Below, piece after piece: positions 10-57,793 of a DNA stretch of 58,736 nucleotides. How positions within the stretch are numbered: the first letter of the stretch is position 1; each line of letters begins with the position of its first letter. The translations under genes and the position numbers were made by a program. Below the pieces are notes generated by a model that was given only the letters and a program-made list of their open reading frames with translations, was not told the DNA's origin and did no database searches. Source of the stretch: a virus (Duplodnaviria > Caudoviricetes); IMG/VR virus record IMGVR_UViG_3300023243_000165, positions 1-58,736 of that record. One strand, 5' to 3'.

Positions 10-135
10 CCGCCGCCAAATATAAAACTCATATTATTTTAACTCCTTTGTGTATAAATATCTTTTTACTTGCCATTGTTTACCTTTTAAAAACTGTTGC
101 CAACCCGGTCTTGCATGCACTGCTATCTTTTTGCA
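10..135. repeat. Terminal overlap, copy 1 (circular assembly)
   Basis: 126 bp identical to 58611-58736; unit genome ~58,601 bp. Confidence 0.97.
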
Positions 136-17716: not shown

Positions 17717-17896
17717 TTATACTAAGATTGCTTTTTTCAAACCGTTTGGTAAGTTTTTTTGTCCGCCAACAAGTTTACCTGTTTTAGCATTCATCATTTT
17801 ACCATATTTAGCTTGACCAATTTGTCCAGTCATTTTATAGTTTTTGTGTCCACCACCAGCAGACATACCGCCTGACATTTTCTTTTGCATCTTCAT
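17717..17896 (-). CDS. Small basic GG-motif protein (59 aa)
   Basis: Hand-translated MKMQKKMSGGMSAGGGHKNYKMTGQIGQAKYGKMMNAKTGKLVGGQKNLPNGLKKAILV. Confidence 0.7.
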   Translation of the reverse strand: MKMQKKMSGGMSAGGGHKNYKMTGQIGQAKYGKMMNAKTGKLVGGQKNLPNGLKKAILV

Positions 17897-17898
17897 AA

Positions 17899-18078
17899 TT
17901 ATTTTACTCCCTCAAATTTACCACCTTTAACAGCGATACCCATACCACCGCAAGATAGATTGATTATTTTATTTTTAGCTGCAGCTTTTGCAGCACTATC
18001 CTGTTTGTCACCTTTGACAGAATCCGTTGCTTCTTTTAATGCTTTTAAGTAAGCTTTATATTCAGTTGCTTCATCCAT
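17899..18078 (-). CDS. Small GG-motif protein (59 aa)
   Basis: Hand-translated; ends LSCGGMGIAVKGGKFEGVK; TAATG-coupled. Confidence 0.75.
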   Translation of the reverse strand: MDEATEYKAYLKALKEATDSVKGDKQDSAAKAAAKNKIINLSCGGMGIAVKGGKFEGVK

Positions 18079-18287
18079 TACTTTAATAAATCTCCATAAT
18101 AGTTTGTTAAATTTTTATTTGATAAATCTATTCCACCTGAATCATGCTTAATAAATTTACCTTGATAAGCTTCAGTTACATGTGATCCCTTACTAGCTTT
18201 CTTAACACAGTTAGGAACTTTTCTTCCACCCTTGGATTTCATTCCAATCATTTCATACCCTTCCCAACAAGGTCCTTTTTTAGCCAT
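18078..18287 (-). CDS. Small basic protein
   Basis: 'PCWEGYEMIGMKSKGGRKVPNCV'; AAGGAG RBS. Confidence 0.75.
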   Translation of the reverse strand: MAKKGPCWEGYEMIGMKSKGGRKVPNCVKKASKGSHVTEAYQGKFIKHDSGGIDLSNKNLTNYYGDLLK

Positions 18288-18443
18288 TTAAATCTCCTTT
18301 TGTGCCGCGGCATTCAGAGTGTATAACTTCTGCTGTTTGCGGTTATATAACTTCTTTGATTGTATCACCTTAGGGCTAAACAGTAAACGTCTTTGCAAGA
18401 GGGTTCTTGCGACCGGGTTTCTTTTCTTTATAGACTTTTCCAT
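18288..18443 (-). CDS. Small basic protein, ArfA-like motif (51 aa)
   Basis: MEKSIKKRNPVARTLLQRRLLFSPKVIQSKKLYNRKQQKLYTLNAAAQKEI; stop abuts next ATG. Confidence 0.6.
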   Translation of the reverse strand: MEKSIKKRNPVARTLLQRRLLFSPKVIQSKKLYNRKQQKLYTLNAAAQKEI

Positions 18444-18537
18444 GTGTTTTTGCGATTACTTTATCAAATTTTCTTTTATCTGATGACCCTAGACCAGGTT
18501 CTAATTGTCTAGCCATCTGTGCTCTTGTTATTGCCAT
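18376..18537 (-). CDS. Micro-protein with capsid-like N-terminus (53 aa)
   Basis: MAITRAQMARQLEPGL...; TAATG-coupled to endolysin stop. Confidence 0.65.
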   Translation of the reverse strand: MAITRAQMARQLEPGLGSSDKRKFDKVIAKTHGKVYKEKKPGRKNPLAKTFTV

Positions 18538-19010
18538 TATAAATCTACTGCCTTTCCTATTATTGGTTTATATTTAGTTTTACCCTCTTCTCTAAATGCA
18601 TGCAAGAACTGCTTCCTAGGTTTATCTTCAACATAACTACAATGACACCACCCGCTGTTAGGTTCTCCTTTTTTGTAGAACTCGAGAATCATTTGATCAA
18701 AATCAAGATTACTATATATCCAATCGCAGAGCTCTGCATTATCAACTCCTGGACATTCGAAATCAACGGCTTCCGCATCACAGTGCTGACTATTAACTGA
18801 ACTACCGATTGCAACTGATAACTCTGGAGATCTATAACATGATGTCACAACTACAGGACCAAAATGATCTCTGACGGGTTGTAAAATATTATCACACAGT
18901 AATTTTAGTTTTGCTATCTGATCTGAGTTGGGGTTGTTATCTATGCCCTTACGGACAGCAGTGTCGGATTTAATTAATTCTTGAAGAGTGAAATTTCGGG
19001 AAAGATTCAT
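18537..19010 (-). CDS. Peptidase M15-family endolysin
   Basis: 'LSRNFTLQEL', 'SCYRSPEL', 'SQHCDAEAVD', 'WCHCSY' zinc-binding motifs. Confidence 0.9.
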   Translation of the reverse strand: MNLSRNFTLQELIKSDTAVRKGIDNNPNSDQIAKLKLLCDNILQPVRDHFGPVVVTSCYRSPELSVAIGSSVNSQHCDAEAVDFECPGVDNAELCDWIYSNLDFDQMILEFYKKGEPNSGWCHCSYVEDKPRKQFLHAFREEGKTKYKPIIGKAVDL

Positions 19011-19145
19011 TTATTGACAAGATAAACACTCATCGCTGTCACTGTCAAGATCAGCTAGTGCTTCTTGTTTACATTCATCGCTACAGAACATATCAAATTC
19101 TTCTTTAGCTTCGAATTCTTTTGTACATTTTTTACAATTTTTCAT
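19011..19145 (-). CDS. Zinc-finger micro-protein with acidic CxxC tail (44 aa)
   Basis: MKNCKKCTKEFEAKEEFDMFCSDECKQEALADLDSDSDECLSCQ; exactly fills the gap. Confidence 0.75.
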   Translation of the reverse strand: MKNCKKCTKEFEAKEEFDMFCSDECKQEALADLDSDSDECLSCQ

Positions 19146-19333
19146 TATTTACCTCTAACGGAATCGATGAAATTATATACTCTCCCGAATTGCTTATCAA
19201 TAGACATCAAATCAGTTTGAATCATGGTTACTGTTAATTGAAGTTCTATGAGTGTGACAAGTGTCCAGGTAGCGAGTCCCATAAGAATCATACCTAATAA
19301 ACTTATTAACATAGTGTTAGTTTTTCTAGTCAT
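19145..19333 (-). CDS. Small membrane protein
   Basis: N-terminal hydrophobic helix followed by coiled coil. Confidence 0.65.
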   Translation of the reverse strand: MTRKTNTMLISLLGMILMGLATWTLVTLIELQLTVTMIQTDLMSIDKQFGRVYNFIDSVRGK

Positions 19334-19416
19334 AAGGGTGCCACTAATATTGTTAGTATAATAAATCCAATAATTAAAGCTCCTGTAAAATAATAGTTCA
19401 CACTAGCACACTCCAT
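19330..19416 (-). CDS. Single-pass membrane peptide (~23-28 aa)
   Basis: (MECAS)VNYYFTGALIIGFIILTILVAPL; ATGA-coupled. Confidence 0.5.
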   Translation of the reverse strand: MECASVNYYFTGALIIGFIILTILVAPL

Positions 19417-19428
19417 ATTAATTAGAAT

Positions 19429-19542
19429 CTACTTTATAATTGCAATAATTAACACAACTGCAACAATAATTACTGCTGCTTTGTGATCTGTCCAATAATG
19501 CATCGCTGCATCTTTAATTTGTTCTTTAATTTGATCAATCAT
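19429..19542 (-). CDS. Single-pass membrane peptide (37 aa)
   Basis: MIDQIKEQIKDAAMHYWTDHKAAVIIVAVVLIIAIIK; AAGGAG RBS. Confidence 0.65.
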   Translation of the reverse strand: MIDQIKEQIKDAAMHYWTDHKAAVIIVAVVLIIAIIK

Positions 19543-19747
19543 TCTTTACTCCTTTTTTACACTTACATCTTTTACCAGCTAACTTTTCAGCTATCCATTC
19601 ACAGATATCATCCATTGCTCCAAAGAATTTATAACAAAATTTATCTATCATGGTTCTAAAAAATATTCCTAATAAAGTTATTAAAAAAACTAATGATAGC
19701 ATAAGATAAATAAATATATCTACAACACACCAATATATTTTAGACAT
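19535..19747 (-). CDS. Small membrane protein
   Basis: 70 aa, one TM segment, C-terminal RCKCKK. Confidence 0.6.
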   Translation of the reverse strand: MSKIYWCVVDIFIYLMLSLVFLITLLGIFFRTMIDKFCYKFFGAMDDICEWIAEKLAGKRCKCKKGVKND

Positions 19748-19914
19748 TACTTCTTAGCTATTGTGTCTTTATTTACGCCCTTTTTAATAATATAATCTTG
19801 AGTTCCGTTGGCACCTGTTTCTACTTCTTTTTTAAGGCTTCTAAATAAAATCATTTCTTTTACTTTTTTATATTTTGTTTTTAGGAACTGTTCTATTAAT
19901 TTTGAATCTCTCAT
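19747..19914 (-). CDS. Small basic protein (55 aa)
   Basis: MRDSKLIEQFLK...KEVETGANGTQDYIIKKGVNKDTIAKK; coupled at both ends. Confidence 0.65.
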   Translation of the reverse strand: MRDSKLIEQFLKTKYKKVKEMILFRSLKKEVETGANGTQDYIIKKGVNKDTIAKK

Positions 19915-20123
19915 TTACTACCACCAATGTAACCACCAATAACTCCAATTAATCCTGTAACCGACATCTTCATTAAGGTTATTACACTATCATCTACTGG
20001 TCTATTTTCTTCTAATGCTACAATATAATCTCCAACAATAATAGTACCTAATAAAATTAGAACACCACTTGTAATTAATAGTATTACTATGTCTTTAAAA
20101 TTCTTAATCATTAGCACTTCCAT
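19911..20123 (-). CDS. Two-TM membrane protein (holin candidate)
   Basis: Two hydrophobic helices near endolysin; start probably 20111. Confidence 0.6.
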   Translation of the reverse strand: MEVLMIKNFKDIVILLITSGVLILLGTIIVGDYIVALEENRPVDDSVITLMKMSVTGLIGVIGGYIGGSK

Positions 20124-20431
20124 CTTCTTCTAGCCTGTCTTATTCTAGAATTAGGATCATTTCTTGTTTTAGCTGATGCATTTTTTAGTTGACCAAGAGA
20201 TCTTGCACAATAGGACTTTCGTCTTTTTGAAGCTTTACTACCTTTTTTAACCTTACCTGTAACGGCTGTTTTTAATTTTGATCCTGGATTTAATTTTCGG
20301 TAAGCTTTAACACCCTTACGTGTCATTCCTGCACCTGATTTAGTAGAACGGTAATTCTTTTTGTTACGCGCAGGCATACCACCTTTAGCGAAACCGTCGA
20401 TCTCTATACCTAAGTCAGCATAGTAATCCAT
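20111..20431 (-). CDS. Basic conserved protein (DUF6321-like) with FAKGG
   Basis: 'GAGMTRKGV..NPGSKLK..RRKSYCARS..ARRRWKC'. Confidence 0.75.
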   Translation of the reverse strand: MDYYADLGIEIDGFAKGGMPARNKKNYRSTKSGAGMTRKGVKAYRKLNPGSKLKTAVTGKVKKGSKASKRRKSYCARSLGQLKNASAKTRNDPNSRIRQARRRWKC

Positions 20432-20438
20432 GTTCTAC

Positions 20439-20759
20439 CTAATATGTTAATCCTGGCGCTGAATATTTATCAGTTAATAATGTGTAAGCAGCAACATTTG
20501 TTTTTGTTTTACAAAAAATACCTTTTGGGAAAGGTATACCGTCTTCTGGAAAAGAAAAGTTAATCACATCACCTGAAGGTACATCTCCAACAAACAAAGT
20601 TACGCCCGAATTTGAAGTGGTTGTTAATTCTAAAACCCCTGCTCCAACAGCATCGGATGCAATAATAATTCCTCTTAATCTAATTGGCCCTGCAATAATA
20701 GCAGTAGCTCCTGCCGCGGCAGTTGATCTTGTTGCTTGTACGTCGCTTTTATATCCCAT
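20439..20759 (-). CDS. Virion structural protein
   Basis: 'RLRGI..FPEDGIPF..GI' beta protein after MCP. Confidence 0.65.
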   Translation of the reverse strand: MGYKSDVQATRSTAAAGATAIIAGPIRLRGIIIASDAVGAGVLELTTTSNSGVTLFVGDVPSGDVINFSFPEDGIPFPKGIFCKTKTNVAAYTLLTDKYSAPGLTY

Positions 20760-20784
20760 AATAAATCCTATTATAAACTTTAAA

Positions 20785-20811
20785 TATAGGGGCGTAAAGT
20801 ACGCCCCTATA
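20785..20811 (-). terminator. Rho-independent terminator after MCP
   Basis: tataggggcgt-aaagt-acgcccctata 11 bp stem followed by a U-rich tract. Confidence 0.75.
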
Positions 20812-20821
20812 AAGTATCTTA

Positions 20822-21754
20822 TTACGCTCCCGGAGAACCGAAGATTCCTCTAGGATCAGACCAACCGAAGCTGTATCTTTCTCTAGCTTTGAATCTAACG
20901 TTACCCGTGTCGAAATCACCTTCAATAGCTGTTTTGATAGGACTTCTAATGAAGTTCTTCAAGCCATTTGGTGCATCAGTCATAATGAAGAATGCATCAG
21001 TATCAGTCAAGAAGTGGTTAACTCTGTAACCTTCTGGAATCATACCCATGTTCATCATTGCGTTGATGTCGTTTTTCGCAAACGCAGATGATCCACCTGG
21101 AGTTGTAGATAAAGGTGAGTTCATAATTCTCTCAGCAGTAAATTGTAATTCTTTTGGAATTATCATTTTTCTACCTTGAAGAGCTATTTTTAACCCTCTT
21201 TCGTCTACGAACGCCGCGATGTCAATCAACGATTGTTCTAACGATGTTTCAGACAAGTCAGAAGCAGTAGAAAGTTCATTTCTGAACGTTCCACCTGTAG
21301 CTAACGGGTGATCAGTAGTAATAAGTGCTTTACCGTCACCACCATTGTATGAACCACCAGTGTCGAAACCGTTGTTCAAAATGTTAGCTGCTGTGATTTG
21401 TTTTGATTGCGCCATTGATCTAGCAAGAGCTCTTGTATATCTGCCCGCTAATCTGTCGTATAAGTTATCTTCAATCGCCTCTTCTGTGATAGCAAATGCT
21501 AACGCAGTAGTATTGTGCGTGTATCTTGAAGTATATACTTCAGAAGCTTGGTCAAACGTGACCATAGCACCCTCAGCTTTAGTAGCTGCTGTGCCAAACC
21601 CAGATAACATAACTTCTTCTTCAAACGCTCTGTCTGAAGACTCAGTCATGAAGATCTCTGCATGCTCATTGTCGTATCTATTGTATTCCAGGCCGAATAG
21701 TGCATTCAATCCTGGCTCTAGTTCTTTAACTAGTTGTGATCGTGATATAGCCAT
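20822..21754 (-). CDS. Major capsid protein
   Basis: 310 aa 'MAISRSQLVKELEPGLNALFGLEY...KARERYSFGWSDPRG'; follows scaffold and decoration genes; terminator downstream. Confidence 0.92.
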   Translation of the reverse strand: MAISRSQLVKELEPGLNALFGLEYNRYDNEHAEIFMTESSDRAFEEEVMLSGFGTAATKAEGAMVTFDQASEVYTSRYTHNTTALAFAITEEAIEDNLYDRLAGRYTRALARSMAQSKQITAANILNNGFDTGGSYNGGDGKALITTDHPLATGGTFRNELSTASDLSETSLEQSLIDIAAFVDERGLKIALQGRKMIIPKELQFTAERIMNSPLSTTPGGSSAFAKNDINAMMNMGMIPEGYRVNHFLTDTDAFFIMTDAPNGLKNFIRSPIKTAIEGDFDTGNVRFKARERYSFGWSDPRGIFGSPGA

Positions 21755-21770
21755 AATTTATATTCTCCTA

Positions 21771-22349
21771 TTATATGCCTGTGCCTTGAGCATAGAAATG
21801 GTTATTAATTCTAACCAATACATCTACGTTCACGCTTCCAGCAGTTGAACTATTAGTATCTTGCGATATGTCAATTGCTTGAAGAACAGTTCCACTTACA
21901 GTTAAGCCAGAAACACTGTAGTCCATTTGAACTTCAGATATTCCAGATAAAGTGTTACCTGTTGCTGTTGTTATTGCAAAGTTTTTGAAGATGTCCGCAA
22001 CTGCGAACGCTCCATCAGAGTCAACTGAGTAGACTACATCTGGATCATCAACGACAGTAGCGACAATGTCACTAGCGTTAACTGTTCCTGGATAATAGTT
22101 TTTCCAAGTTGGTTTCTGAGTAGTAGGGTCAGTGTAAAACACTCCGTTAAAAACGCCCACAACAAGATCAGAAGTATTAGCAACCGCTCTTTCGATTCCA
22201 CCACCTGTAACAGGTTTTACCAAGTCACCTTGATAAATTGGCGTACCGTAGTTCGCTGCTATTCTATATCTGTTTTGCGCATTAATAAAAGGAGAGCCAT
22301 CTAACTTTCTTACAGGTCTTAGACCATATTTTTCAGCTGTGTTAGCCAT
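21771..22349 (-). CDS. Capsid decoration/cement-like protein
   Basis: 'YGLRPVR..IYQGDLV..GVFNG..DDPD'; immediately upstream of MCP. Confidence 0.7.
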   Translation of the reverse strand: MANTAEKYGLRPVRKLDGSPFINAQNRYRIAANYGTPIYQGDLVKPVTGGGIERAVANTSDLVVGVFNGVFYTDPTTQKPTWKNYYPGTVNASDIVATVVDDPDVVYSVDSDGAFAVADIFKNFAITTATGNTLSGISEVQMDYSVSGLTVSGTVLQAIDISQDTNSSTAGSVNVDVLVRINNHFYAQGTGI

Positions 22350-22405
22350 AGTTATTTTCTCCGTTTAGTTGTTTACTTTTTTTTGGAGTGAACATTACCA
22401 AATCA

Positions 22406-22876
22406 TTAGGATTTGTTTCCACCACCAAAAGTTACGCGAGATTGTCTATCAATATTGATAGGCATCTCAGGTCGTTGTTCCTTCATGACATCGTTGTCCA
22501 CCGCGTCGATTCTTTCTTGAGTAATTCTTTTGAAATACTCAGCACGGCTTTTAACAATTTCTTCCGGTATCCTTCCCAACACAAGGCCAGCAACCCCGAT
22601 CAAACCTGCGTAAGTTCCCTGAGCTATGACTGGATAATTATGATCACCTGTAGAATTTTTCAATTCTTCTGCTCTCACAAATTCCCAACCTTCCCTCATT
22701 TTTTTAGATACGTTAGCCGTATCTTGAAAACCCATACTCTCGGTTCTTATCCATCTATGACAATAACCGTCTGGCGCAGGTGGTGCATCCAGAGATGATG
22801 GTGGCGTCCATGGTTGTAGTCTCTTTTTTTCGACTTCAACAGACGCGCGCGAAGTTCTATTTATTTTATCACTCAT
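22406..22876 (-). CDS. Conserved head-module protein
   Basis: 'WTPPSSLDAP..HRWIR..REGWEFV'. Confidence 0.7.
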   Translation of the reverse strand: MSDKINRTSRASVEVEKKRLQPWTPPSSLDAPPAPDGYCHRWIRTESMGFQDTANVSKKMREGWEFVRAEELKNSTGDHNYPVIAQGTYAGLIGVAGLVLGRIPEEIVKSRAEYFKRITQERIDAVDNDVMKEQRPEMPINIDRQSRVTFGGGNKS

Positions 22877-22879
22877 TTG

Positions 22880-23875
22880 CTATTCCTCCTTCACGAATTT
22901 AGCGTATTCTTCTAGTGGCACCCCTAATTTTTTGGCAATAGCCACCTGTGACTTGGTGAGTCTCACAGATCTACGTCCCTGCTGGGTTCTACCGGCAGAA
23001 GCAACTTTTTGGACGGGTCTTCGTTGCTCTTGAGTAACGAAACGGTGAGGGAAATTTTCCTTCATTCGTTTGTTTATCTCATTATAATACTCATCGCTCT
23101 CTACATCAACACCTATGCCCACTAGATCTTCGTGCACCGTCATTGCTGCATTGGTCATGATTTTATCATTACCAAACCACGTATTATCACCTGCCCAATC
23201 CCTAGCTCGTGTACTAGGTTGTGCGGGGACTACGTCCTGTTCTGAGTATTTTGGCTCTTCTTTAACGCTATTCTTTTGTTCCTCAAGCTGTTTTAATCTT
23301 GACTCTCTATCGGCAAGTTTAATTCTAGCTTTTTCTTTTTCAATAGATAACCGAACAAGTTCGTCGTTTGATTCCATGATTTTATCTGGATCATTAGTTT
23401 CAATCGCTTCTTTCAGTTTTCTTTTGACTTCTTCTCTTTGAGAATCAACTCTAGCGTCAAATTCAGTTAAGTATTTTTCATCTGCAGAATCATATTTAGA
23501 TTCAGAATCCTCATACTTTTTTTGTAAACCTTTAGCAAAATCTAAAGCTGCCTGTTCTCTTCTTTCAGACTCTCTAAATTTTCTTGTAAGTTTATCAATT
23601 CTCTTTTTGACTTGATCTGAAACTTGAGTAAGGTCTTCTACCTCGCTTTTTGTTTCTTCTTGTGGTTCTTCCTGAACTTCTTCATATGCAACTTTTTCTT
23701 TTGGTTGCTCTTTATCGTGATCAGTATAACCTAAATCAACTTCACCAGAATTTAAATTTGGTTCTTTTGATTCTTCCTGTATAGTTTCTTCAACCTGGAC
23801 GTTTGTTTCCTTTACGTCATCAAGATCAATTTCAACCTCAGGTTGTATGTTAGCTCGCTCCTGTGCATCAGCCAT
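22880..23875 (-). CDS. Capsid scaffolding protein
   Basis: Acidic coiled coil; C-terminal 'VRLTKSQVAIAKKLGVPLEEYAK'. Confidence 0.8.
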   Translation of the reverse strand: MADAQERANIQPEVEIDLDDVKETNVQVEETIQEESKEPNLNSGEVDLGYTDHDKEQPKEKVAYEEVQEEPQEETKSEVEDLTQVSDQVKKRIDKLTRKFRESERREQAALDFAKGLQKKYEDSESKYDSADEKYLTEFDARVDSQREEVKRKLKEAIETNDPDKIMESNDELVRLSIEKEKARIKLADRESRLKQLEEQKNSVKEEPKYSEQDVVPAQPSTRARDWAGDNTWFGNDKIMTNAAMTVHEDLVGIGVDVESDEYYNEINKRMKENFPHRFVTQEQRRPVQKVASAGRTQQGRRSVRLTKSQVAIAKKLGVPLEEYAKFVKEE

Positions 23876-23894
23876 GATGTTTTCTCCTTAACGT

Positions 23895-24356
23895 TTAATA
23901 TAAATGCAGAATATCTTCTGGTTTACTTATGGTTGCGATGATTTCATCATCGTTTAAAATACGGTGCTCACCATATTTTGTTTTAAATCTTGAACCGGCA
24001 TATCTACCGTAGATTACAAATTGTCCTGTTTCACACCAAGGCCCTTTAGGAAATTTATCATTGTCTTGATAACAAAGATCCCCCATCGCAACGACTAAAC
24101 CAACAACGGTTGTCATTTGAATTGTTTCGCTTGCTGTGTCAGTAAAGATAATTCCACCTTTAGTTTTTTTAGGACCTGAATAAGGTCTAACTAAAAGTCT
24201 GTAACCAACTGGTTTCGGTATTAGTTCAAGGTATTTATCAATACCTGCTTTATCAGTAGGTATAGCTGTTTCATTTGAATCAGGTGCAGCCTCACCCTTT
24301 TTTTTAATCCCTATTAAAGGATCCGTTTGTATTATCGTCATCGACATTCTCCTCAT
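23895..24356 (-). CDS. groES: GroES-like co-chaperonin
   Basis: 'PVGYRLLV..KTKGGII..G.VVAMG..RYAGSR..RILNDDEIIA'. Confidence 0.85.
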   Translation of the reverse strand: MRRMSMTIIQTDPLIGIKKKGEAAPDSNETAIPTDKAGIDKYLELIPKPVGYRLLVRPYSGPKKTKGGIIFTDTASETIQMTTVVGLVVAMGDLCYQDNDKFPKGPWCETGQFVIYGRYAGSRFKTKYGEHRILNDDEIIATISKPEDILHLY

Positions 24357-24531
24357 TTCTCTGCAGGTCTTTAAGATCCTGAAGCAGCGTTTCTAATCCG
24401 CTGAGTTTCCCTTTAGCATACTTGAGGTTGTCGATTGTGTCTATACCGTACACTATATCTTCTTTAACTTGTTTAATTTGTTTATTAATATAGTGCTTTA
24501 TAGCGTCTAGTGTATTTAGATCAAGATTCAT
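24304..24531 (-). CDS. Conserved small helical protein
   Basis: 75 aa ORF upstream of GroES. Confidence 0.7.
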   Translation of the reverse strand: MNLDLNTLDAIKHYINKQIKQVKEDIVYGIDTIDNLKYAKGKLSGLETLLQDLKDLQRNEENVDDDNTNGSFNRD

Positions 24532-25081
24532 TTTTTTCTAAACAGATTTTGTTTTCACCCTCTTCTATAACTAAGAAACCAAAATGTGTAAGAGTTTCGT
24601 TTATTAAACTTTGGTTATACTTAGTAAAATCATCAAAAATAAATCTAGTTTTTGGGGCTGCTCTGTTCGCAAACCAAACAGCTTCAGTGATAACATCTTT
24701 AGTCATGTGGGGACCATCAAAATGCACAAATGCAAACTTAGAATCCTTATGTTCTGTATGGTTCATAAATTTTGTATCGGTCATGTTACATAAAGTAAAC
24801 TTACCTTCATTCCTGTAAGAATAAAAATCATTTAGCATTGTATCTCTCATCTGATCCGTGTAATCACAAGTGTAAGAACCTGTGCTATCGTAATGTTGAT
24901 AATTTAAATTACCGTAAGGATCCACACCAACATGAATATAATTATTAATGATATTATCCATAATAATTTTAGAACCAAGCCCTTCACGAACTCCGATTTC
25001 ACATGATTTAAAACCTTGGCAATCGAATCCCTTACTCCATTTAATAAGTAATTCATAATCTGTGCTATCACCTCTAATCAT
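24521..25081 (-). CDS. Class I SAM-dependent methyltransferase
   Basis: 'EIGVREGLGS', 'VDPYG', 'VHFDGPH', 'FDD'. Confidence 0.85.
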   Translation of the reverse strand: MIRGDSTDYELLIKWSKGFDCQGFKSCEIGVREGLGSKIIMDNIINNYIHVGVDPYGNLNYQHYDSTGSYTCDYTDQMRDTMLNDFYSYRNEGKFTLCNMTDTKFMNHTEHKDSKFAFVHFDGPHMTKDVITEAVWFANRAAPKTRFIFDDFTKYNQSLINETLTHFGFLVIEEGENKICLEKNES

Positions 25082-25123
25082 ATAGTAGTTATAGCAACTA
25101 TTTACGTTTTGTAAAGATCTGAA

Positions 25124-25504
25124 CTATTTTCGCTTAATTAGATCTGTTGCTTTAAGTCCATAGACACTCGCAATGACTCCTACGAAAATTGTTTGATACC
25201 AAAAAGGTAGATTTCCAAAATGCAAAAAGAATAATTCCATTTTTTCCATATGTTCGGGATTATCTGACCAGACTGACCATCCCAGCATTACGATTGGAAT
25301 TGACAGCAAAAGCAAAATAAATTCGTCCTTCCAATCAGATTGTCTAGCTTCTAGTAATTTTCCAGAATACTCTAATTGCCCACTACTCATTTTTTGTGCA
25401 TGCATTAACTGTGCATCAGACATTGCTTGTTTAGTCTTCTGACGGTTTGAATATAGGTGAGCTCCAGTTTTTAGGCCCATTCCCAATAGATTTAACCACA
25501 TCAT
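25124..25504 (-). CDS. Holin-like membrane protein (3TM GTA-holin type)
   Basis: 'SDWKDEF', 'LPFWY', 'ASVYGLK'; Met-Met start at 25504/25501. Confidence 0.7.
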   Translation of the reverse strand: MMWLNLLGMGLKTGAHLYSNRQKTKQAMSDAQLMHAQKMSSGQLEYSGKLLEARQSDWKDEFILLLLSIPIVMLGWSVWSDNPEHMEKMELFFLHFGNLPFWYQTIFVGVIASVYGLKATDLIKRK

Positions 25505-25820
25505 AATATTGTTCTTTTCTCCTTTTGCATAAATATGGTAGCATCTCCTCCATAAGGTGTAAAGCACGGTAACCTTTTATAGAAAACCTGTAAATATCTT
25601 TGTAGTGTGCTTTTTCTTTTTTGCTTTTCTTACGAATGTTTCTATTTGTTTTTAAATATCGTTGAAATAGTATAACAACTTCTTCATCGGACATCTGCAC
25701 TTCCAAAACTGCTGCAGGAGTGTGTCCTTCTTTCTTTTTTTGAATTCCGAACCAGCCTTCACCTTCGAATAGCCCTGCTAAGAATATTAATTGTTCTTTT
25801 TTTGTGAGTTCGTCAAACAC
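25431..25820 (-). CDS. Free-standing single-motif LAGLIDADG endonuclease
   Basis: 'FLAGLFEGEGWF', 'LPYLCKRRKEQ'. Confidence 0.8.
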   Translation of the reverse strand: MFDELTKKEQLIFLAGLFEGEGWFGIQKKKEGHTPAAVLEVQMSDEEVVILFQRYLKTNRNIRKKSKKEKAHYKDIYRFSIKGYRALHLMEEMLPYLCKRRKEQYYDVVKSIGNGPKNWSSPIFKPSED

Positions 25821-25826
25821 TCGATC

Positions 25827-26060
25827 TTATAACAGATCTTTTATGTATTCGCTACCTTTTTTTAACTCTATTTCTCCACCTGAGGATTTACCAGGTATAG
25901 ATTTAGGCCCCATATCTTTTAATCTAATTAAACCAAGAACATTACTAGTATTTGCTTCATGTGACATACTAGGATCATATTCTGTTTTCATTAAATTATC
26001 AAAAAGTATTTGCTTCTCTGGATTATTTGCTAAAACTTTTTTTGCTGTACTACTTGGCAT
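25827..26060 (-). CDS. Small GG-motif protein
   Basis: Ends KSSGGEIELKKGSEYIKDLL. Confidence 0.7.
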   Translation of the reverse strand: MPSSTAKKVLANNPEKQILFDNLMKTEYDPSMSHEANTSNVLGLIRLKDMGPKSIPGKSSGGEIELKKGSEYIKDLL

Positions 26061-26190
26061 TTAATAACCTACAAGTTGGACAACCTTTTTTATATTTATC
26101 ATGTTTATTACAATGTGATTTAACAACAAACGGTTCTTGTCTGCTAGGGGTTACTGAATCAACTATAAACTTCCATATTTTTCTTAACAT
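26050..26190 (-). CDS. Small zinc-binding protein (46 aa)
   Basis: MLRKIWKF...HCNKHDKYKKGCPTC. Confidence 0.65.
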   Translation of the reverse strand: MLRKIWKFIVDSVTPSRQEPFVVKSHCNKHDKYKKGCPTCRLLNAK

Positions 26191-26360
26191 TATTTTTTAC
26201 CTTTATGATCACTGTCTTTCATAATTTTACCATTAGGCATTTTGTGATAACCTACTTTTATTTCTTTTTTACTTCCTACTTTTAATTTAATAGGTGGTAC
26301 TTGTGAATTAGGTCCTTTTTTAGGAGCAACAGTTGTTGTAAGTCTTTTATTTTTTATCAT
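26190..26360 (-). CDS. Small basic protein (56 aa)
   Basis: 'LTTTVAPKKGPNSQ..GYHKMPNGKIMKDSDH'; coupled at both ends. Confidence 0.65.
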   Translation of the reverse strand: MIKNKRLTTTVAPKKGPNSQVPPIKLKVGSKKEIKVGYHKMPNGKIMKDSDHKGKK

Positions 26361-26899
26361 AATAAACTTTTATCTACGTTAGATGATATCACAACTTCAC
26401 CACCGTCGTCATAAGATTGAAAGTTACTCAAGAATGGGCTTTTTGCTGGTGCTTTAATTTGTGTTGTTGGTGTTTTGCACGGAGGGTTAGTTCCATCAGG
26501 ACAAGTGTTATTTATACTATTTGAATTATCTCCACCAATTGTTGCAGGACCTGTAGTTTTTTTACCTGTGGTTAACATTTCACCACCAAGGATGTCATCC
26601 TTACGAGCTTCTTTTAAATTTTTATTATTGTAAATACCTTTTGAGATTGCATTAAAACCTGCAGTCAAAGGTCCAATTGTTGGTAGTTGAAAAGCACCAC
26701 TTCTTGCAGTTACTTGATTTGTTTGGTTATTTAGAACATTTCCAGATCCACTCATCGTAGATGTTTTGCCACCTAGGTTTGAATCTCTTCTTCCTACAGA
26801 AGTGTTACCCATAGAAGCACTTTTTGCTTGGTTAGACTCATTACCTGCATCCATACCTCCACCCTTAAATTTTCTAATTTTTCTGTTGTTTGCTTTCAT
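26357..26899 (-). CDS. Low-complexity GG-motif protein
   Basis: FKGGG near N-terminus; ends YDDGGEVVISSNVDKSLL. Confidence 0.7.
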   Translation of the reverse strand: MKANNRKIRKFKGGGMDAGNESNQAKSASMGNTSVGRRDSNLGGKTSTMSGSGNVLNNQTNQVTARSGAFQLPTIGPLTAGFNAISKGIYNNKNLKEARKDDILGGEMLTTGKKTTGPATIGGDNSNSINNTCPDGTNPPCKTPTTQIKAPAKSPFLSNFQSYDDGGEVVISSNVDKSLL

Positions 26900-29216
26900 T
26901 CTGTTTCTCCCTGTTCAGGTCAATTTTTTCTTCTGCAATTCTAATTCTTTCTCCAGCTTGATCTTCTGAAGATTCTAATTTCATTTTATCAAGGTCTATT
27001 CTTTCTTCAAACTCTCCGGATTTTCTTTCTTCGGATTCTACATTTTCTTGTGCTTTTCTTTGCATGTCCATAGCTCTTAAATCTAATTCTCTTTGTTTCA
27101 AAGCAACTAATGGGTCTTCTTTTTGTCCACCCGCTTCTTCTTGAGCTAAAGCTGTAGTTATCTCAGCAATTCTTTTTGCAACCATAGAATCAAACATAAT
27201 TTTAAATCCTTTTGGATCCATTTGTGCTTGTTGTTGCATCTCTGGAGATTCTTGTACTAAGTTACCTACTTCTCCATGAGCTTGTAACGCAATATGATCT
27301 GAAATATGTCCTTGAAGCAATGCGTACACCATTGGATTTATTTGAACCATTCTCGTAGCCATAAATGCTCTGTGTGCCGCCATATGTGACTCATGATCTT
27401 GTTCAGGAAACGCTTTTAACATTTGTGTTTGTAATGCTTTAGCATTTTCAGTCGCAGGATCCTCGGGTTGAGGTTGAACTTCTGGTTTTAGTAATGCATC
27501 AATATGTTTTGTACCTAAAGCTTCATAAACTCTTCTGTAAGCCTCTCTTAAATTATGCATTTGTGGATTTGATACTGCAATTTTTAAATTCTCATTCGCT
27601 AAAGTTACTCTTTGTGACATAGAAAAGATATTTGGGTCTGCAACAGGAATTACATCTACTCTGTCGTCAAAATCTTTTAATTTTACGAACCTGTCTGCGT
27701 TTGTAACTGCGTATGGATACACCGGAGGTAAGTAATCAGCAAAAACTTTTGCTAAAAGTCTAAATTCTTGTCTCATTCCGTAGTAGCAACGTTTGTGGAT
27801 AGCACTCATGACACGAGAACCACGCTCCAAGAGAGCAATTGTAGTCCCAACAGCTGCTTGTTGGTTTCCATCACCAACTTGCATGTCTGCAATCGATGCA
27901 AATCTTTGTCCTGCTTGTACTACAAAGCCTAAAAGTTGAAATAAAGTTCCACTTGGCTCTTTAAAAGGTAAAATTTGAAACTGATCTTTAATATTTCCGC
28001 CTGGCGCATCAACATCTCTGAATTCTCCGGGTTGAAAAGGTTGGTCATCATCTCTAATTCTTATTCCTCTAGATTTAAATCCAGCAGGTAAGTTCGCTAA
28101 AGTACCCGCATCTAGTAATTGTCTTAATGCTTGAGTAGCAGATCTAGATAAGCCACCAATCATGTGAATTAAACCAAAACCATAGAAACCTAGACCCGGT
28201 AAAAACTTATAGTGAACAAAATATTCTCTTCTTGATGCTAAGTCATCATCTTGGTTATAGTTTCTATAAATAGATAATACTTCCCCTGAACCTTCATCAA
28301 TTGAAACAATGTATGGAAGCTTAACTTCTTTTTCTGCATCTTCTTTTTCAAACTGATTTATGTTTAAATCAATATGCATTTCTAAAATATTGTATTGGTA
28401 TTCTTTTTCTCCTGCAGGCTTAACACCTTCAAGTTCATTTAGTTTATCTTGTACAGGGTTTTGTTCAGCTTGTTTTGCTATTAATTCTACATCTCTATAG
28501 AAACCCGCTTTTTGTTGTTTAAGAATAGTGTTCTCTGACATCTTAACAACGTGTGTAATTCTTTCACAATCTTTTAAATCAGTTGCGTAGTAAGGAACAA
28601 TTAAATCCTCTGCAGGTACAAATTTTGATACTGCTCTTTGTTTAATCTCGTCGTAGTAAATCTTTTTAAATGCAGACCCTGCTAATGGTAAATAGAATAA
28701 CATCTGATCCGTGTCTGGAGTGTACTCTTCCATCTCCTCCATTAACATATAGTTCATGAAATCTTTTACACGTTCTGCTTGTTGTTGTGTTTCTGGTGTG
28801 TCTGCTCCAATGACAGCTGTTCTTACAGGGCCATCACTTGGTAATAATTCTTTATAAGCTTGTGCTTGAAATTGTGTAACAGCTTCTGATAAGAGCGGAT
28901 GGGTAACACCACTTGCACCTTGAAATGGTCTAGTATTATTTACATACTTAAACCCAAGTAAATCTAAACCACTAGTGTAAGCCTGTTCCCAATCCGATCT
29001 TGAAACTTTGTCTCTTTTATAATCCTGAATAAGTTCAGCAGAGATTCGACCTAATGTTCGGTCATCCATCTCTTCAGCTAAGTTTCTATAAAAGTCTTCT
29101 TCGGTTTCTTCTTCTTCTTGAGGAATTTCTTCCTCTCCACCTTCGACTTCTACGTCAACTTCTTCTGTTACTTCTTCTTCTTCAGGAAGTTCATTTTGTT
29201 TCTCTACTTCAGCCAT
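26874..29216 (-). CDS. Portal protein (P22-like)
   Basis: 780 aa; 'HPLLSEAVTQFQAQAYKELLP', 'FLPGLGFYGFG', C-terminal coiled coil. Confidence 0.92.
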   Translation of the reverse strand: MAEVEKQNELPEEEEVTEEVDVEVEGGEEEIPQEEEETEEDFYRNLAEEMDDRTLGRISAELIQDYKRDKVSRSDWEQAYTSGLDLLGFKYVNNTRPFQGASGVTHPLLSEAVTQFQAQAYKELLPSDGPVRTAVIGADTPETQQQAERVKDFMNYMLMEEMEEYTPDTDQMLFYLPLAGSAFKKIYYDEIKQRAVSKFVPAEDLIVPYYATDLKDCERITHVVKMSENTILKQQKAGFYRDVELIAKQAEQNPVQDKLNELEGVKPAGEKEYQYNILEMHIDLNINQFEKEDAEKEVKLPYIVSIDEGSGEVLSIYRNYNQDDDLASRREYFVHYKFLPGLGFYGFGLIHMIGGLSRSATQALRQLLDAGTLANLPAGFKSRGIRIRDDDQPFQPGEFRDVDAPGGNIKDQFQILPFKEPSGTLFQLLGFVVQAGQRFASIADMQVGDGNQQAAVGTTIALLERGSRVMSAIHKRCYYGMRQEFRLLAKVFADYLPPVYPYAVTNADRFVKLKDFDDRVDVIPVADPNIFSMSQRVTLANENLKIAVSNPQMHNLREAYRRVYEALGTKHIDALLKPEVQPQPEDPATENAKALQTQMLKAFPEQDHESHMAAHRAFMATRMVQINPMVYALLQGHISDHIALQAHGEVGNLVQESPEMQQQAQMDPKGFKIMFDSMVAKRIAEITTALAQEEAGGQKEDPLVALKQRELDLRAMDMQRKAQENVESEERKSGEFEERIDLDKMKLESSEDQAGERIRIAEEKIDLNREKQNESKQQKN

Positions 29217-29606
29217 TTAACAAATCTTAGTTGGTTTACTTCTTGCTAGTTTGTTTCCTCTTGATTCAACCATAACACCATTACTAGCTTTAATCATTTT
29301 ACCGTATTTAGCTCCGTCCATTGAACCTAAACCAATACCTGAGTAATCTCCAGCTAATGTTCCGCCTTTTTTAGATGTAGCATTTGGTCCTGGACCTGTG
29401 TTAAGTCCTTTTTTTCTATAAACGTTAACTGCATCCATTACTTTTTCTTTAAAGCCTTTTTTCTTTGCAATTTTGCTTATCATTGATTTGTCGCCACCTT
29501 CAGTTTTAAGGTAGGCATCCATTTCTTTTTTCTGCCCTAGCATTTTAGATCCCGCATAAGCTGCGACACCTGCTGCTAGAAATTTTTTAAGTTTTTTGCT
29601 TGCCAT
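29217..29606 (-). CDS. Small basic protein
   Basis: 'AKYGKMIKASNG..SRGNKLARSKPTKIC'; AGGAG RBS. Confidence 0.72.
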   Translation of the reverse strand: MASKKLKKFLAAGVAAYAGSKMLGQKKEMDAYLKTEGGDKSMISKIAKKKGFKEKVMDAVNVYRKKGLNTGPGPNATSKKGGTLAGDYSGIGLGSMDGAKYGKMIKASNGVMVESRGNKLARSKPTKIC

Positions 29607-29643
29607 GATAATTATCTCCTATTGTTATAACAGGTTTATAATA

Positions 29644-31899
29644 TCATGCAAATATATTTACGACTAGTCCACCCGTGTTATAGGCTTTAAAAGGCTTATC
29701 CACCATTTCTTTATTAACTCTAATAGCGTAAGCATCAAAATATAACCTAGGATCACCTTCCATTATCTTCTCAACCTCTCCGTTATAACGTCCTGCATAA
29801 TACTGAGCTTCTTGTTCAGTTTTAAAAGCAGCTTTATGTTGAGTTCTTGATTTGTCTGGGTTAAGACCAAATTCTTTTTTAGTATCTACTTGTTGCACAA
29901 CTTTAAAAGGTTTATTAGGATCTGACTTTGCAACCGGTATTGTTTTAACTTCTGAACCATATTCTCTAGCTATTTTATCCATTGCTGCAGGTAGAGTTGC
30001 TTTCTTTTTAGGATCTGTAAAACCTTGTATTGGAACTTCATTATCGTTAGCATCTTTTCTAACCACCCCTTGTCTACCGCCATATCCTTTAAAACCTGCT
30101 TTACCTGTTCTTGTTCCGTAAAATTCTATGTCCCCTAAATACTTAGTTCTTTTTGCATGGTGTAAGTATTCAACAGGTGAGATGGCTACCCAATCCACAC
30201 CCCTGTCTGCTGCATCCTTAATTTGATTTTTAAGAGCATGTGCACCCCAGTTCTCTTTTCCGTAAAGAGGTAAAAAAGGAATCCCGTCTTGAGCTTCTCT
30301 GTTTGTTATATTAGATAAGTTAAGTGAGTTAGATCTCATTTCTCTAAATTCACTATTTAATGTATTAAATCTCGCTTGGTCTTCTCTAGTCGCTTTAATC
30401 CCTTTAGCTGAAATTGTTTTCATTTCATCAACCATTTTTTCAAGCTTTCTATTTGCAGAAAAGAATTCTATCTCTGAACCAAAAGCATTTTGTACTTTAT
30501 CCCTTGTTGGATTAATCTTTCTTAGTTTTTGGTGGTAGTCAGATTGTATCTCATCAAGCATCATAACTTTTTGATTCTCATTACCCCCACTTCTAATACT
30601 ACCTCTTACATGATAAATCTGATTAGGTATTTTTTTCTCACCACTGTTATAGTGTCTATTAAAACCACTACTTAGTTTCTGACCCATAGGTAATTCTTTA
30701 GGATAATACACTACATTTTCAAAATACTCATCACCACCCTTAATTCTATACTCACCGTAATTTCCATACTTAGTTTCGAAGCCTTGTGATTTTTGTAATT
30801 GTAGTCTTCTAAAAATATCTATGTCTTTTGCTTTACCTGCTTCAGTAATTCTACTTATCTCTAATGGGTCTACCTCAACCCCAAGCCGTCTAACTTTTGG
30901 TATTAAAGCTTCGTAGCTGCCTATAAGATCACCAAAAGGAGACTTATCAAAATCAGAGTATTGATCCTCTACTTCTTTAAATTTATTGTACATTAAAGAA
31001 TTTTGTTTTCTGATATTTTTTTGAAGTGAGTCTACAATCTCTACAATATCTTCTGTTTCTTGACTGTCCCCTGCTTTAGCAATAACTTTATTTTTTATAC
31101 CATCTAAACTATTATTAATGTCACGTCCTAAATCCTCAGCTTCATCTACTATTTTAACATCGGTTCCAAGCTTTCTCATTTTTAAATTATTAACAGGTGC
31201 TTTTTCTACAATGTATAATAAATCCATTTTAGTTAATGGAATCTTTTTTTCTTGAGCTACCTTTAGAAACCCACCTACAAGATTTCCAGCTTTATCAAAC
31301 TGTGCAATATTTGCGTCCCACATCTCTTCTCTTTTGACTGCTTGTGATATATTTTTGAATTCAGGATTGCCGGTCTTAAAAGATCCTGGACCTCCTGATT
31401 TAAAATCTTTAATCCACTCTTCTGGTTTTCTAGCTCCAGCAATAGGGTGTCTTGCAATGTAATCGTAAAGAGAGGAACCAATTCTTTTTGTTTTACCCCC
31501 ACGAGAAAGTGGAGCGTTGTAAGACATCTTTTTAAGTTCGTTTGATCTTGCGATTGCAACTTGTCTAATTTGTTCTTGTTGTGATATCTGAGGTGCTGTC
31601 ATTGCTCGACCTCTATCCATCTTAGTTGGAACTATAGATAATATTTCATCTACCTCATCAACTGGTCCCGTGGTTCGTGAAACGGGAGCCTTGGGTAATT
31701 TGATTCCTGCGATTTTTTTTATAACTCTACCGATAGGGTTCCTAAGGGCCACGGCTCCTGCACCAGCTAATGCTAATCCTGCAACGCCTCTAGCTGCTGA
31801 TGGTTCGTATGGTTCTAGATCAGATTTATTAACAGGTACTGAGGATGTTTTATCATTCTCAATAATTTCTTGCCTATTTAAATCTGCAAGTCCAGCCAT
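29644..31899 (-). CDS. Large putative internal/injected protein
   Basis: 751 aa; 'HVRG...LDEIQSDYHQ' motif; C-terminal YNTGGLV. Confidence 0.65.
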   Translation of the reverse strand: MAGLADLNRQEIIENDKTSSVPVNKSDLEPYEPSAARGVAGLALAGAGAVALRNPIGRVIKKIAGIKLPKAPVSRTTGPVDEVDEILSIVPTKMDRGRAMTAPQISQQEQIRQVAIARSNELKKMSYNAPLSRGGKTKRIGSSLYDYIARHPIAGARKPEEWIKDFKSGGPGSFKTGNPEFKNISQAVKREEMWDANIAQFDKAGNLVGGFLKVAQEKKIPLTKMDLLYIVEKAPVNNLKMRKLGTDVKIVDEAEDLGRDINNSLDGIKNKVIAKAGDSQETEDIVEIVDSLQKNIRKQNSLMYNKFKEVEDQYSDFDKSPFGDLIGSYEALIPKVRRLGVEVDPLEISRITEAGKAKDIDIFRRLQLQKSQGFETKYGNYGEYRIKGGDEYFENVVYYPKELPMGQKLSSGFNRHYNSGEKKIPNQIYHVRGSIRSGGNENQKVMMLDEIQSDYHQKLRKINPTRDKVQNAFGSEIEFFSANRKLEKMVDEMKTISAKGIKATREDQARFNTLNSEFREMRSNSLNLSNITNREAQDGIPFLPLYGKENWGAHALKNQIKDAADRGVDWVAISPVEYLHHAKRTKYLGDIEFYGTRTGKAGFKGYGGRQGVVRKDANDNEVPIQGFTDPKKKATLPAAMDKIAREYGSEVKTIPVAKSDPNKPFKVVQQVDTKKEFGLNPDKSRTQHKAAFKTEQEAQYYAGRYNGEVEKIMEGDPRLYFDAYAIRVNKEMVDKPFKAYNTGGLVVNIFA

Positions 31900-32249
31900 T
31901 ACTTAACTCCTGAAAATTTAGTACCTTGAATTGCAACTCCACCACCAGATGAGAATTTTTTCTTTATTTGAAACCCAACATAATCTTTACCTATTGAAGC
32001 AGAAGTTTGTGCTTTTGTTTCATCAGGAACATACCCAGGGTTTTCCCCTCCTTGAAATTTACTTTTTTGTTTTGTAAGGTTAATACGAATTTTACCTTTT
32101 CCATCTTCTTTAAATAAACTTTTAAGGTCAGAGCCTCCTAAAGTAGTATGATACATACCTTCTTTATTTCTATCGTAAGTTTTTTCAGGGTCATTTACTG
32201 ATAAACCAAAACTATAAAGATTTTTATTATTAGTTTTTTTCTTTCCCAT
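31899..32249 (-). CDS. Small GG-motif protein
   Basis: Ends FSSGGGVAIQGTKFSGVK. Confidence 0.72.
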   Translation of the reverse strand: MGKKKTNNKNLYSFGLSVNDPEKTYDRNKEGMYHTTLGGSDLKSLFKEDGKGKIRINLTKQKSKFQGGENPGYVPDETKAQTSASIGKDYVGFQIKKKFSSGGGVAIQGTKFSGVK

Positions 32250-32251
32250 GA

Positions 32252-32662
32252 TTAGTCTATAAGATCTTTAATGTAATCTCCACCTTTACCAACTACATTC
32301 TCTACGATTCCAGGGTTGCCTCTTGGTCTTGGTTTATGTCCCATATCCATTCCACCACCTTTGTTCATAGTTCTAGGTACTGCTGCCATACCAGGCGCTG
32401 AAGAAAGCACTTCTTTTTTTCCTTTAAAAAATTTCTTTAAAGTATCTCTACCTTTTTTAGTTCCTAATACTGCAACTCCAAGTACTGCTTTAATTGGCTC
32501 ACCACCTTTGCTTCTCTTTTTTGGTTTTAACTCAAAAGGGTTAGGGTCTTTTACTACTGACGCTAAGTCTCTGTCAATTTCATTTTCTAAGAATGCTGCT
32601 TCGTTGGAAGCTTTTAAAGCTGCTTTTTCTGCAGCTATTTCTGCTTTAGTTTTTTGTGGCAT
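32252..32662 (-). CDS. Small GG-motif protein
   Basis: RSKGG, MNKGG; ends GKGGDYIKDLID. Confidence 0.72.
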   Translation of the reverse strand: MPQKTKAEIAAEKAALKASNEAAFLENEIDRDLASVVKDPNPFELKPKKRSKGGEPIKAVLGVAVLGTKKGRDTLKKFFKGKKEVLSSAPGMAAVPRTMNKGGGMDMGHKPRPRGNPGIVENVVGKGGDYIKDLID

Positions 32663-32670
32663 AATATCTC

Positions 32671-35912: not shown

Positions 35913-35934
35913 ATGTTTTTTTTTCTGACCTTTT

Positions 35935-57790: not shown

Positions 57791-57793
57791 GTG

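Follow-up and report, generated by a model that had tools for sequence, protein, structure and literature searches.

In phage T4, the internal proteins IPI-III and Alt carry a capsid-targeting sequence, which is N-terminal and is removed by the prohead protease; the loci for internal proteins vary among T-even phages. The cargo-loading peptides of encapsulins are C-terminal and uncleaved; they are composed of Gly and small hydrophobic residues, lie behind a flexible region and belong to a shell of the HK97 fold. In adenovirus and African swine fever virus (ASFV), the maturation consensus places hydrophobic-x-G-G before the cut. Here we describe a family of C-terminal peptide tags, each built on a hydrophobic-x-x-Gly-Gly core, in the virus record IMGVR_UViG_3300023243_000165. 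The record in its full length of 58,736 bases is the window of this study. It is a complete genome of a pelagiphage of the HTVC023P type, a phage of the ocean bacterium SAR11; its portal is 69% identical to the portal of Pelagibacter phage HTVC023P and 55% identical to that of HTVC027P. It was found that the tags exist, are terminal and portable, are swapped between proteins, and are under protein-level selection in the late region of the genome.

The first-pass annotation of the window had noted an [FYML/K/R]xxGG motif and some shared endings on otherwise different late proteins. All the motif instances it named are present in the genes concerned, including FNKGG, which occurs twice in gene 470..1441, and AKYGKM.[KN]A..G, which is found in the genes starting at 29217 and 17717. 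The shared motifs are real, but they are not separate items; they are parts of complete modules, each 15-30 residues in length, which begin with the xxGG. The shared endings fall into five strictly C-terminal modules, which we call A, B, C, D and D', and all five open with the hydrophobic-x-x-Gly-Gly core followed by a short strand. The consensus is [S/A]RGxGxAI[KRQ]GxxFxGV[KFR] for type A and hydrophobic-x-x-GG-x-[VI]-x-[VI]-x-KG-x-DYIKDL[LI] for type B, with one extra residue optional. Type C reads GKM[IV]KARGGK..KPTKxx, type D reads PFKAYxxGGLVVNIFA, and type D', on the protein after the portal, reads [FY][DE]xGGE[VI][VI]ISxNVDKxLL. The individual instances are given in Table 1.

The loose pattern [FYMLKR]xxGG was counted against within-protein shuffles in the 10 candidate proteins and in the other 85 proteins of the window. 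The candidates have 20 observed matches against 6.9 expected (GG itself: 33 against 20.3 in the shuffles), but this comparison is post hoc and biased because the proteins and the residue class were picked after the motif had been seen. The other 85 proteins have 37 matches against 31.7 expected, which is not significant. Pairs of tails were also scored by BLOSUM62 local alignment against 60 shuffles. One of the two endings proposed as shared stood out from the shuffles: the tails of genes 17899 and 31899 score 51, above the shuffle maximum of 47. The other, between genes 25827 and 32252, scores 41, which is above the mean shuffle maximum of 36.8 yet inside the shuffle range. The window alone thus yields a single clearly non-random pair; the case rests on the relatives.

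Three groups of relatives were used: the phages HTVC023P and HTVC027P, 80 portal-centred viral-contig loci, and 80 loci retrieved with a degenerate DNA pattern for KGxDYIKDL. Orthologues in these relatives keep the motifs; in HTVC023P the tagged proteins are gp30 with type C, gp32 and gp51 with type A, and gp53 with type B'. The residue class given by the first-pass annotation was recovered from the independent sequences. Among 56 unique type B tags, the residue three before GG is M in 15, F in 10, Y in 9, L in 7, K in 7 and R in 2, which together make up 50/56. M, F, Y or L occupies this position in 41/56 tags, compared with 16% in the same proteins overall, and position -2 is S, K or N in 47/56.

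For type B, the regular expression matches 87 times in the portal loci, and in 85 of these only 0 or 1 residue is left before the protein ends. With the DNA pattern in viral contigs, just 1-2 residues follow KGxDYIKDL in 106 of 110 matches, and the remaining four are without the GG-strand half and appear chance-like. A type B profile built from 53 tails and 34 positions was also searched against 1.84 billion cluster representatives (E <= 0.001). It returned 136 clusters, and the motif is 0-1 residue from the end in 129 of them; the rest consist of three terminal variants, two false hits, one read-through form and one fragment. The true type B hits are 35 to 297 residues long, and thus none of them joins the tag to a large known protein. 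All 70 regular-expression matches of type A are at the very end of the protein, and KPTK of type C is two residues from the end in 55 of 57 matches. The five long contigs bearing tag B that were examined are all of the HTVC023P type.

Portability was evaluated from the bodies to which the tags are attached. The bodies of 282 unique tagged proteins cluster into 44 families, and two tag classes occur on 5 of these families (A/B four times and D'/A once). The exchange can be placed exactly after GG: in two contigs, near-identical proteins read ...NYSTGG and then continue with GVAIQGTKFTGVK in one case and with DVTVTKGGDYIKDLID in the other. At the DNA level, 101 unique instances of tag B were compared. 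Little or no change is seen at the residues G, G, K, G, Y, I, K, D and L, while their third codon positions have an entropy of 0.5-1.6 bits, with up to four codons for Gly and Val. Tags A, C, D and D' follow the same trend of fixed residues with varying synonymous sites. Because the synonymous sites vary, selection acts on the peptide and not on a DNA site, and a DNA-level repeat was rejected as the explanation. The earlier suggestion of portable tags is supported by strict C-terminal placement, by the many bodies, by the swaps at GG, by conservation of the protein but not of the DNA, and by confinement to the late/structural region.

A sixth mixed body cluster was set aside because it is artefactual and stems from a single case in which a D body and a C protein are joined in frame. 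In contig L010 (1205-3220), the 751-amino-acid (aa) body runs on in frame into the 129-aa type C protein and has lost its own type D tail; this fusion could be natural or an assembly error.

The tags are confined to one part of the genome. When the profile of each tag was searched over all 765 stop-to-stop frames of the window, significant matches were found only in the named genes at 17.7-32.7 kb, and none in other frames or in the replication module (38-52 kb). The tagged genes are placed among the head, portal and lysis genes. Across the clade the order is conserved: the large terminase (TerL) is followed by 0-3 variable genes with A or B tags, a protein of about 750 aa with D, one of about 125 aa with C, and the portal. 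The portal is followed by the D' protein, a protein of about 58 aa with A, a Cys-rich one of about 48 aa, one of about 77 aa with B and, further on, GroES. In the window, the 56-aa gene (26190..26360) has lost the A tail that is present in its orthologues. The content of tagged genes varies beside near-identical portals.

The candidate proteins are net basic (+1 to +26) and rich in Gly and Lys, and the tagged bodies are small and almost free of known domains. In a Pfam scan of 104 representatives of B-tagged clusters, 98 had no domain, three had DUF6496, two had a dockerin/EF-hand-like N-terminus and one contained a transporter fragment; the notion of cargo in the sense of enzymes is not borne out. 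The proteins had been described as unrelated. This stands with regard to the 44 body families, but two bodies have recognizable relatives elsewhere. In the family scans of the window (73 proteins against Pfam and 48 against PHROGs), gene 20111..20431 matches DUF6321 (Pfam PF19846) with 41.8 bits against a cut-off of 28.5, which concerns one body and not the tags, and the gene starting at 18078 encodes a CWxGY..VPNC module. PSAYAN and DUF5872-like modules are two further small bodies in HTVC023P. A full-text literature search found no paper on DUF6321. The region of the DUF6321 gene (20000..20341) is 78-91% identical in DNA to the unrelated 34-36 kb pelagiphages HTVC100P, HTVC024P and HTVC204P, and the neighbouring small late genes (19145..19333, 19747..19914 and 25124..25567) resemble translated proteins of HTVC100P by eye. 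This DNA identity and likeness suggest that late accessory genes are exchanged across phage groups.

Each of the 751-aa, 129-aa and 136-aa tagged proteins has a hydrophobic Gly/Ala-rich stretch, and such segments are a trait of ejection proteins. Searches with the individual proteins gave little: the 751-aa protein had nothing below E 0.1 against solved structures and only unnamed viral clusters in an Atlas look-up, the 129-aa protein returned 350 clusters with no informative names, and phage records gave no tblastn match to the 116-aa protein. The 825-aa 'PcfJ-like' protein at the same position in phage DSL-LC04 was considered as a counterpart of the 751-aa protein and rejected, as the two are not detectably related.

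We propose, at slightly less than even chances, that the modules are uncleaved C-terminal docking peptides that would bring fast-changing small proteins into the virion. This reading is drawn from the strict terminal position and the interchangeability of tags on the same body, from the conserved set that flanks the portal gene together with the variable set that changes beside similar portals, and from the relatives of the bodies elsewhere, which are annotated as virion proteins. The hydrophobic-x-x-Gly-Gly core would form a hinge and turn, followed by a short beta-strand and a type-specific cap, which may be a second strand or a two-turn amphipathic helix. The tags would attach their proteins to a common assembly of head-gene products, most likely in the procapsid interior or at the portal vertex. 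Two sets of proteins would be served: a conserved group of five around the portal gene, and a fast-changing collection of proteins that are small, basic and for the most part without domains. The virion would carry the tagged proteins, which would probably accompany the DNA into the cell, and new ones would be made by recombination at the Gly-Gly junction. Docking, the receptor, the virion location and ejection are what we infer from these patterns. The proposal of the first-pass annotation is partly supported: the motifs are tags, they may serve to load proteins into the procapsid, and cleavage is unsupported.

Several points weigh against docking into the virion. The likely large ejection proteins (1018, 718 and 279 aa) have no tags, which means that entry does not in general depend on a tag. 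The same core is also found at N-termini and inside proteins, which fits a plain structural turn equally well. Five tag types would need one tolerant receptor or several, and, as the bodies are without enzymes, to call them 'cargo' may go too far. Contigs from RNA libraries, drawn from 4 runs in 3 studies, overlap the tagged region in places, 18097-18556, 28860-29330 and 29344-29920 among them, and such contigs cannot show transcription or its level.

Other explanations were weighed on the same evidence. The modules might associate with themselves or with each other as beta-hairpin or strand-helix units, for example in a portal-proximal complex of the five conserved tagged proteins, and would then not be labels for a separate receptor. 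We consider this unlikely, even though five conserved proteins with five tags stand in fixed order around the portal gene, one core is common to all tags, profiles of one type weakly touch the others, and the core is present inside proteins too; the A/B swap on the same body is easier to understand through a common reader than through specific pairing. The Gly-Gly could also be a maturation cleavage site, with the tag guiding the protein into the prohead and then being removed by an unrecognised phage or host protease, in the way of T4 targeting sequences or adenovirus core precursors. The invariant GG with a hydrophobic residue at a fixed distance before it, the exact coincidence of GG with the module boundary and the existence of GG-specific viral proteases would agree with this. 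Nevertheless, we think it rather improbable. The family scans of the window found no protease family, the sole peptidase being the M15 cell-wall endolysin, and no cognate cysteine protease of the adenovirus/ASFV type; the first-pass annotation, too, had recognised no prohead protease. Cleavage after GG is thus left unsupported. No propeptide-like extension stands at the start of the major capsid protein, and the scaffold is separate. The residues after GG are the most conserved part of the tags, which is unlike a site whose product is discarded. Moreover, the hydrophobic residue of the pelagiphage tags lies three before the first Gly, compared with two in the adenovirus/ASFV consensus, so that the spacing is off by one. 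On these grounds, the earlier idea that the motif marks cleavage sites is not supported.

We give a similarly low chance to the view that the xxGG core addresses a host factor. The leading candidate would be the apical domain of GroEL, with the core imitating the mobile loop of GroES; alternatively, the endings would be degrons for a host protease. The tags would then govern how the proteins fold, are recruited or persist in the infected cell, and would not address them to the virion. The phage GroES-like protein, encoded in the same gene block as the tagged genes, bears KTKGGIIF in its mobile loop as placed by eye, the same pattern of xxGG and hydrophobic residues as in the tags, and D, D' and the variants GGLVV, GGMIF and GGIVF likewise have Gly-Gly with a hydrophobic run. 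On the other hand, tag B, the commonest, alternates Glu and Val after GG, unlike the hydrophobic triplet; single GroES loops bind GroEL weakly without sevenfold avidity, as is established; and the short low-complexity bodies are unlikely chaperonin clients. Finally, the modules might have nothing functional in common and reflect Gly-rich composition, paralogy, or recent segment duplication and recombination. The loose motif is low in information, its window test was post hoc, one of the tail pairs of the window falls inside the shuffle range, and the proteins are rich in Gly and Lys. This reading is contradicted by position-specific conservation across hundreds of sequences, the strict terminal position, the free synonymous variation and the 44 body families, and we regard it as very improbable indeed. 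A remainder of the probability is reserved for explanations outside this list.

Table 1. Tag modules, core variants and candidate receptors in the window (positions are those of the window; aa, amino acids).
Feature	Position	Strand	Gene or protein	Remark
Type A C-terminal tag FSSGGGVAIQGTKFSGVK	31902..31955	-	116-aa protein, gene 31899..32249	Kept in orthologues down to 66% identity; GVK and GVF variants
Type A C-terminal tag LSCGGMGIAVKGGKFEGVK	17902..17958	-	59-aa protein, gene 17899..18078	First 31 residues of body: 58% match to a type-B-tailed protein of another contig (L020_622_987)
Type B C-terminal tag KSSGGEIELKKGSEYIKDLL	25830..25889	-	77-aa protein, gene 25827..26060	
Type B C-terminal tag PGIVENVVGKGGDYIKDLID	32255..32314	-	136-aa protein, gene 32252..32662	RSKGG and MNKGGGMD also occur further inside the protein
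Type B' C-terminal tag HDSGGIDLSNKNLTNYYGDLLK	18081..18146	-	69-aa protein, gene 18078..18287	CWxGY..VPNC module as body; larger phage proteins also contain this module
Type C C-terminal module AKYGKMIKASNGVMVESRGNKLARSKPTKIC	29220..29312	-	129-aa protein, gene 29217..29606	Gene adjoins the portal start codon
Type C-like end AKYGKMMNAKTGKLVGGQKNLPNGLKKAILV	17720..17812	-	59-aa protein, gene 17717..17896	Only the AKYGKM.[KN]A..G half in common with type C; membership weak because the type C profile has no match there
Type D C-terminal tag FKAYNTGGLVVNIFA	29647..29691	-	751-aa protein, gene 29644..31899	GGLVVN[IL]FA retained in homologues at 33% overall identity
Type D' C-terminal tag YDDGGEVVISSNVDKSLL	26360..26413	-	180-aa protein, gene 26357..26899, just after portal	HTVC023P orthologue (33% identity) has a type A tail in place of D'
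N-terminal KIRKFKGGGMD motif	26849..26881	-	180-aa protein	RKF[KR]GGGMD or KILKAKGGADA in many orthologues
N-terminal extension DYYADLGIEIDGFAKGGMP, core variant	20372..20428	-	DUF6321 protein, gene 20111..20431	Present in HTVC023P; HTVC100P and DSL-LC04 have DUF6321 proteins without it
Two tandem internal FNKGGI motifs	767..826	-	323-aa protein, gene 470..1441, beside putative ejection-protein block	Kept twice as [FY]NxGG[ILV] in two related contigs
Predicted mobile loop GPKKTKGGIIFTDTASE	24126..24176	-	Phage GroES-like protein, gene 23895..24356	Placed by eye against the Cpn10 family
Portal protein, candidate receptor	26874..29216	-		Tagged genes on both flanks
Major capsid protein, candidate receptor	20822..21754	-		HK97-type family, from family scan
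Scaffold-like protein, candidate receptor	22880..23875	-		N-terminal part acidic; C-terminus resembles phage-scaffold helix-turn-helix by eye

All but a few genes of the genome lie on the minus strand. In minus-strand order, the large terminase (34146-32671) is followed by the 136, 116, 751 and 129 aa proteins and the portal, and then by proteins of 180, 56, 46 and 77 aa. A LAGLIDADG endonuclease, a phrog_2524 protein, a methyltransferase and the GroES-like protein come next, followed by the scaffold-like protein, proteins of 156 and 192 aa, and the major capsid protein. After the capsid gene there are a 106-aa protein, the DUF6321 protein, small membrane proteins, the M15 endolysin, proteins of 69, 59 and 59 aa, two homologues of the SU10-type adaptor, and the tail genes. 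The head module (portal, GroES, scaffold, about 160 aa, about 190 aa, capsid) is common to DSL-LC04, Pag-Yong1 and Caulobacter phage RW. A homologue search with the capsid protein returned only sequences of 85-93% identity. The 156-aa (22406..22876) and 192-aa (21771..22349) proteins, which sit between scaffold and capsid, have no family name in Pfam or PHROGs and no solved-structure match below E 0.1. Their AlphaFold2 models are unusable, with a predicted local distance difference test (pLDDT) of 40 and 31 and alignments of close relatives only, and an Atlas look-up of the 156-aa protein gave unnamed viral clusters only. The first-pass annotation had put the 156-aa protein forward as a candidate partner of the tags.

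The LAGLIDADG-type endonuclease gene (25431..25820, minus strand) lies within the variable block after the portal. The GTG-started open reading frame (ORF) after it (25124..25567, minus strand) overlaps the endonuclease gene by 137 bases; its true start is probably further in, because its family match begins at residue 22. A 53-aa ORF (18376..18537, minus strand) starts with MAITRAQMARQLEPGLG, close to the capsid protein start MAISRSQLVKELEPGLN; it overlaps ORF 18288..18443, which matches phrog_20887, and HTVC023P has a matching small gene (L001 24871-25011) with the start MAITRGQISKQVEG. Two islands with 52-60% G+C stand out from the genome (about 35%). The one at 35900-36650 covers a DUF7222 gene, and the one at 37250-37850 takes in the beginning of a 129-aa ORF whose PHROG hits are helicase/endonuclease-like. 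Neither island has a tRNA or Rfam match, and no tRNA or Rfam family was found in the window. With regard to the region 25800..32700, 14 runs labelled salt lake metagenome hold near-identical DNA (60-99% of sampled words), and marine RNA libraries hold diverged parts only.

Large proteins of 1018, 718 and 279 aa, with hydrophobic stretches rich in Gly, are encoded together in a block at 52578..58633 and 34..1441. The 279-aa protein has a run of eight Gly at its start and a weak match to a 'DNA ejection protein' family (E 2.4e-4), and all three are likely ejection proteins. The 279-aa gene lies directly against the homologue of 34..495 in a related contig, which indicates that the record is circularly permuted or terminally joined. 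A separate shared ending was also observed: three proteins (8668..9351, 10068..10508 and 11883..12227, minus strand) have a C-terminal W..NE.NQNWD-type ending, with the highest tail score in the window (64). Two of the genes are just downstream of Gly_rich_2 fibre-like genes, and the ending may be a shared attachment or chaperone domain. In Roseobacter phage CRP-901, whose portal is related, the portal gene is followed by the genes of two large proteins (L225 5168-6748 and 6754-9327) that end alike, in ..YFDAEGNPVDNLG and ..RYDIDGNPIVT, which is a different shared C-terminal motif.

If the docking model is true, a block of 'hypothetical' genes in these genomes would be explained, and virion-borne or injected proteins could be found by sequence alone. 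It would also provide a simple peptide with which foreign proteins could be brought into the particle of a marine phage, and a C-terminal, apparently protease-free counterpart to the T4 targeting sequence. A preprint calls this pelagiphage group the most abundant known marine phage group, and since HTVC023P is in culture, the idea is directly testable.

Among more distant phages, DSL-LC04 and Pag-Yong1 have xxGG and C-like tails, for example YAKGGLVTSKGQGRVIRSKKTRIC, while RW has no clear one. In the cyanomyovirus Synechococcus phage S-SCSM1, gp029 (517 aa; L083 2651-4204) fuses the DUF5872-like, PSAYAN, CWxGY and DUF6321 modules in one chain, whereas the same four modules are separate small genes in the window and HTVC023P. 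The gp029 chain has no A-D tails, whereas the pelagiphage CWxGY body has B' and the HTVC023P PSAYAN body has A. The GenBank record labels gp029 a 'virion protein', and the paper on S-SCSM1 reports that its virion proteins were determined from CsCl-purified particles by mass spectrometry. The T7 proteins gp6.7 and gp7.3 come closest in kind; they are, like the tagged proteins, small, basic, Gly-rich and encoded just upstream of the portal gene. According to the T7 record they are virion-associated and injected, and they end with ..SAFGGKK and ..SSGGGINI. However, they have no detectable homology to the tagged proteins (the sole match is 8 residues, E 0.21, in a single comparison). The literature searched on phage capsid targeting and internal proteins (T4, giant-phage, P1 and P22; title and abstract) describes no such tags, and no portable tag for gp6.7 or gp7.3.

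Type D and some variants share x-x-Gly-Gly and a hydrophobic run with the mobile loop of GroES/Cpn10. That loop is internal and heptameric, however, tag B is without the hydrophobic triplet, and no tagged protein matches Cpn10. The likeness to encapsulin cargo peptides lies in the C-terminal position of the tags and in the HK97-type family of the phage capsid protein, although encapsulin cargo consists of enzymes and the tagged proteins are small and basic. By this analogy, it is conceivable, at a chance well below even, that the interchangeable tags plug into a site on the HK97-type capsid or portal in an encapsulin-like manner and load hypervariable small basic proteins that are injected into SAR11. 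The tags appear to work most like the T4 capsid-targeting sequence, yet they fail two of its defining features. They are C-terminal, with at least five types, where the T4 sequence is N-terminal, and removal by a prohead protease has no counterpart in the Pfam and PHROGs scans of the window. What they share with the T4 internal proteins is the general design, a short conserved peptide on unrelated, fast-changing, small basic proteins of the head region.

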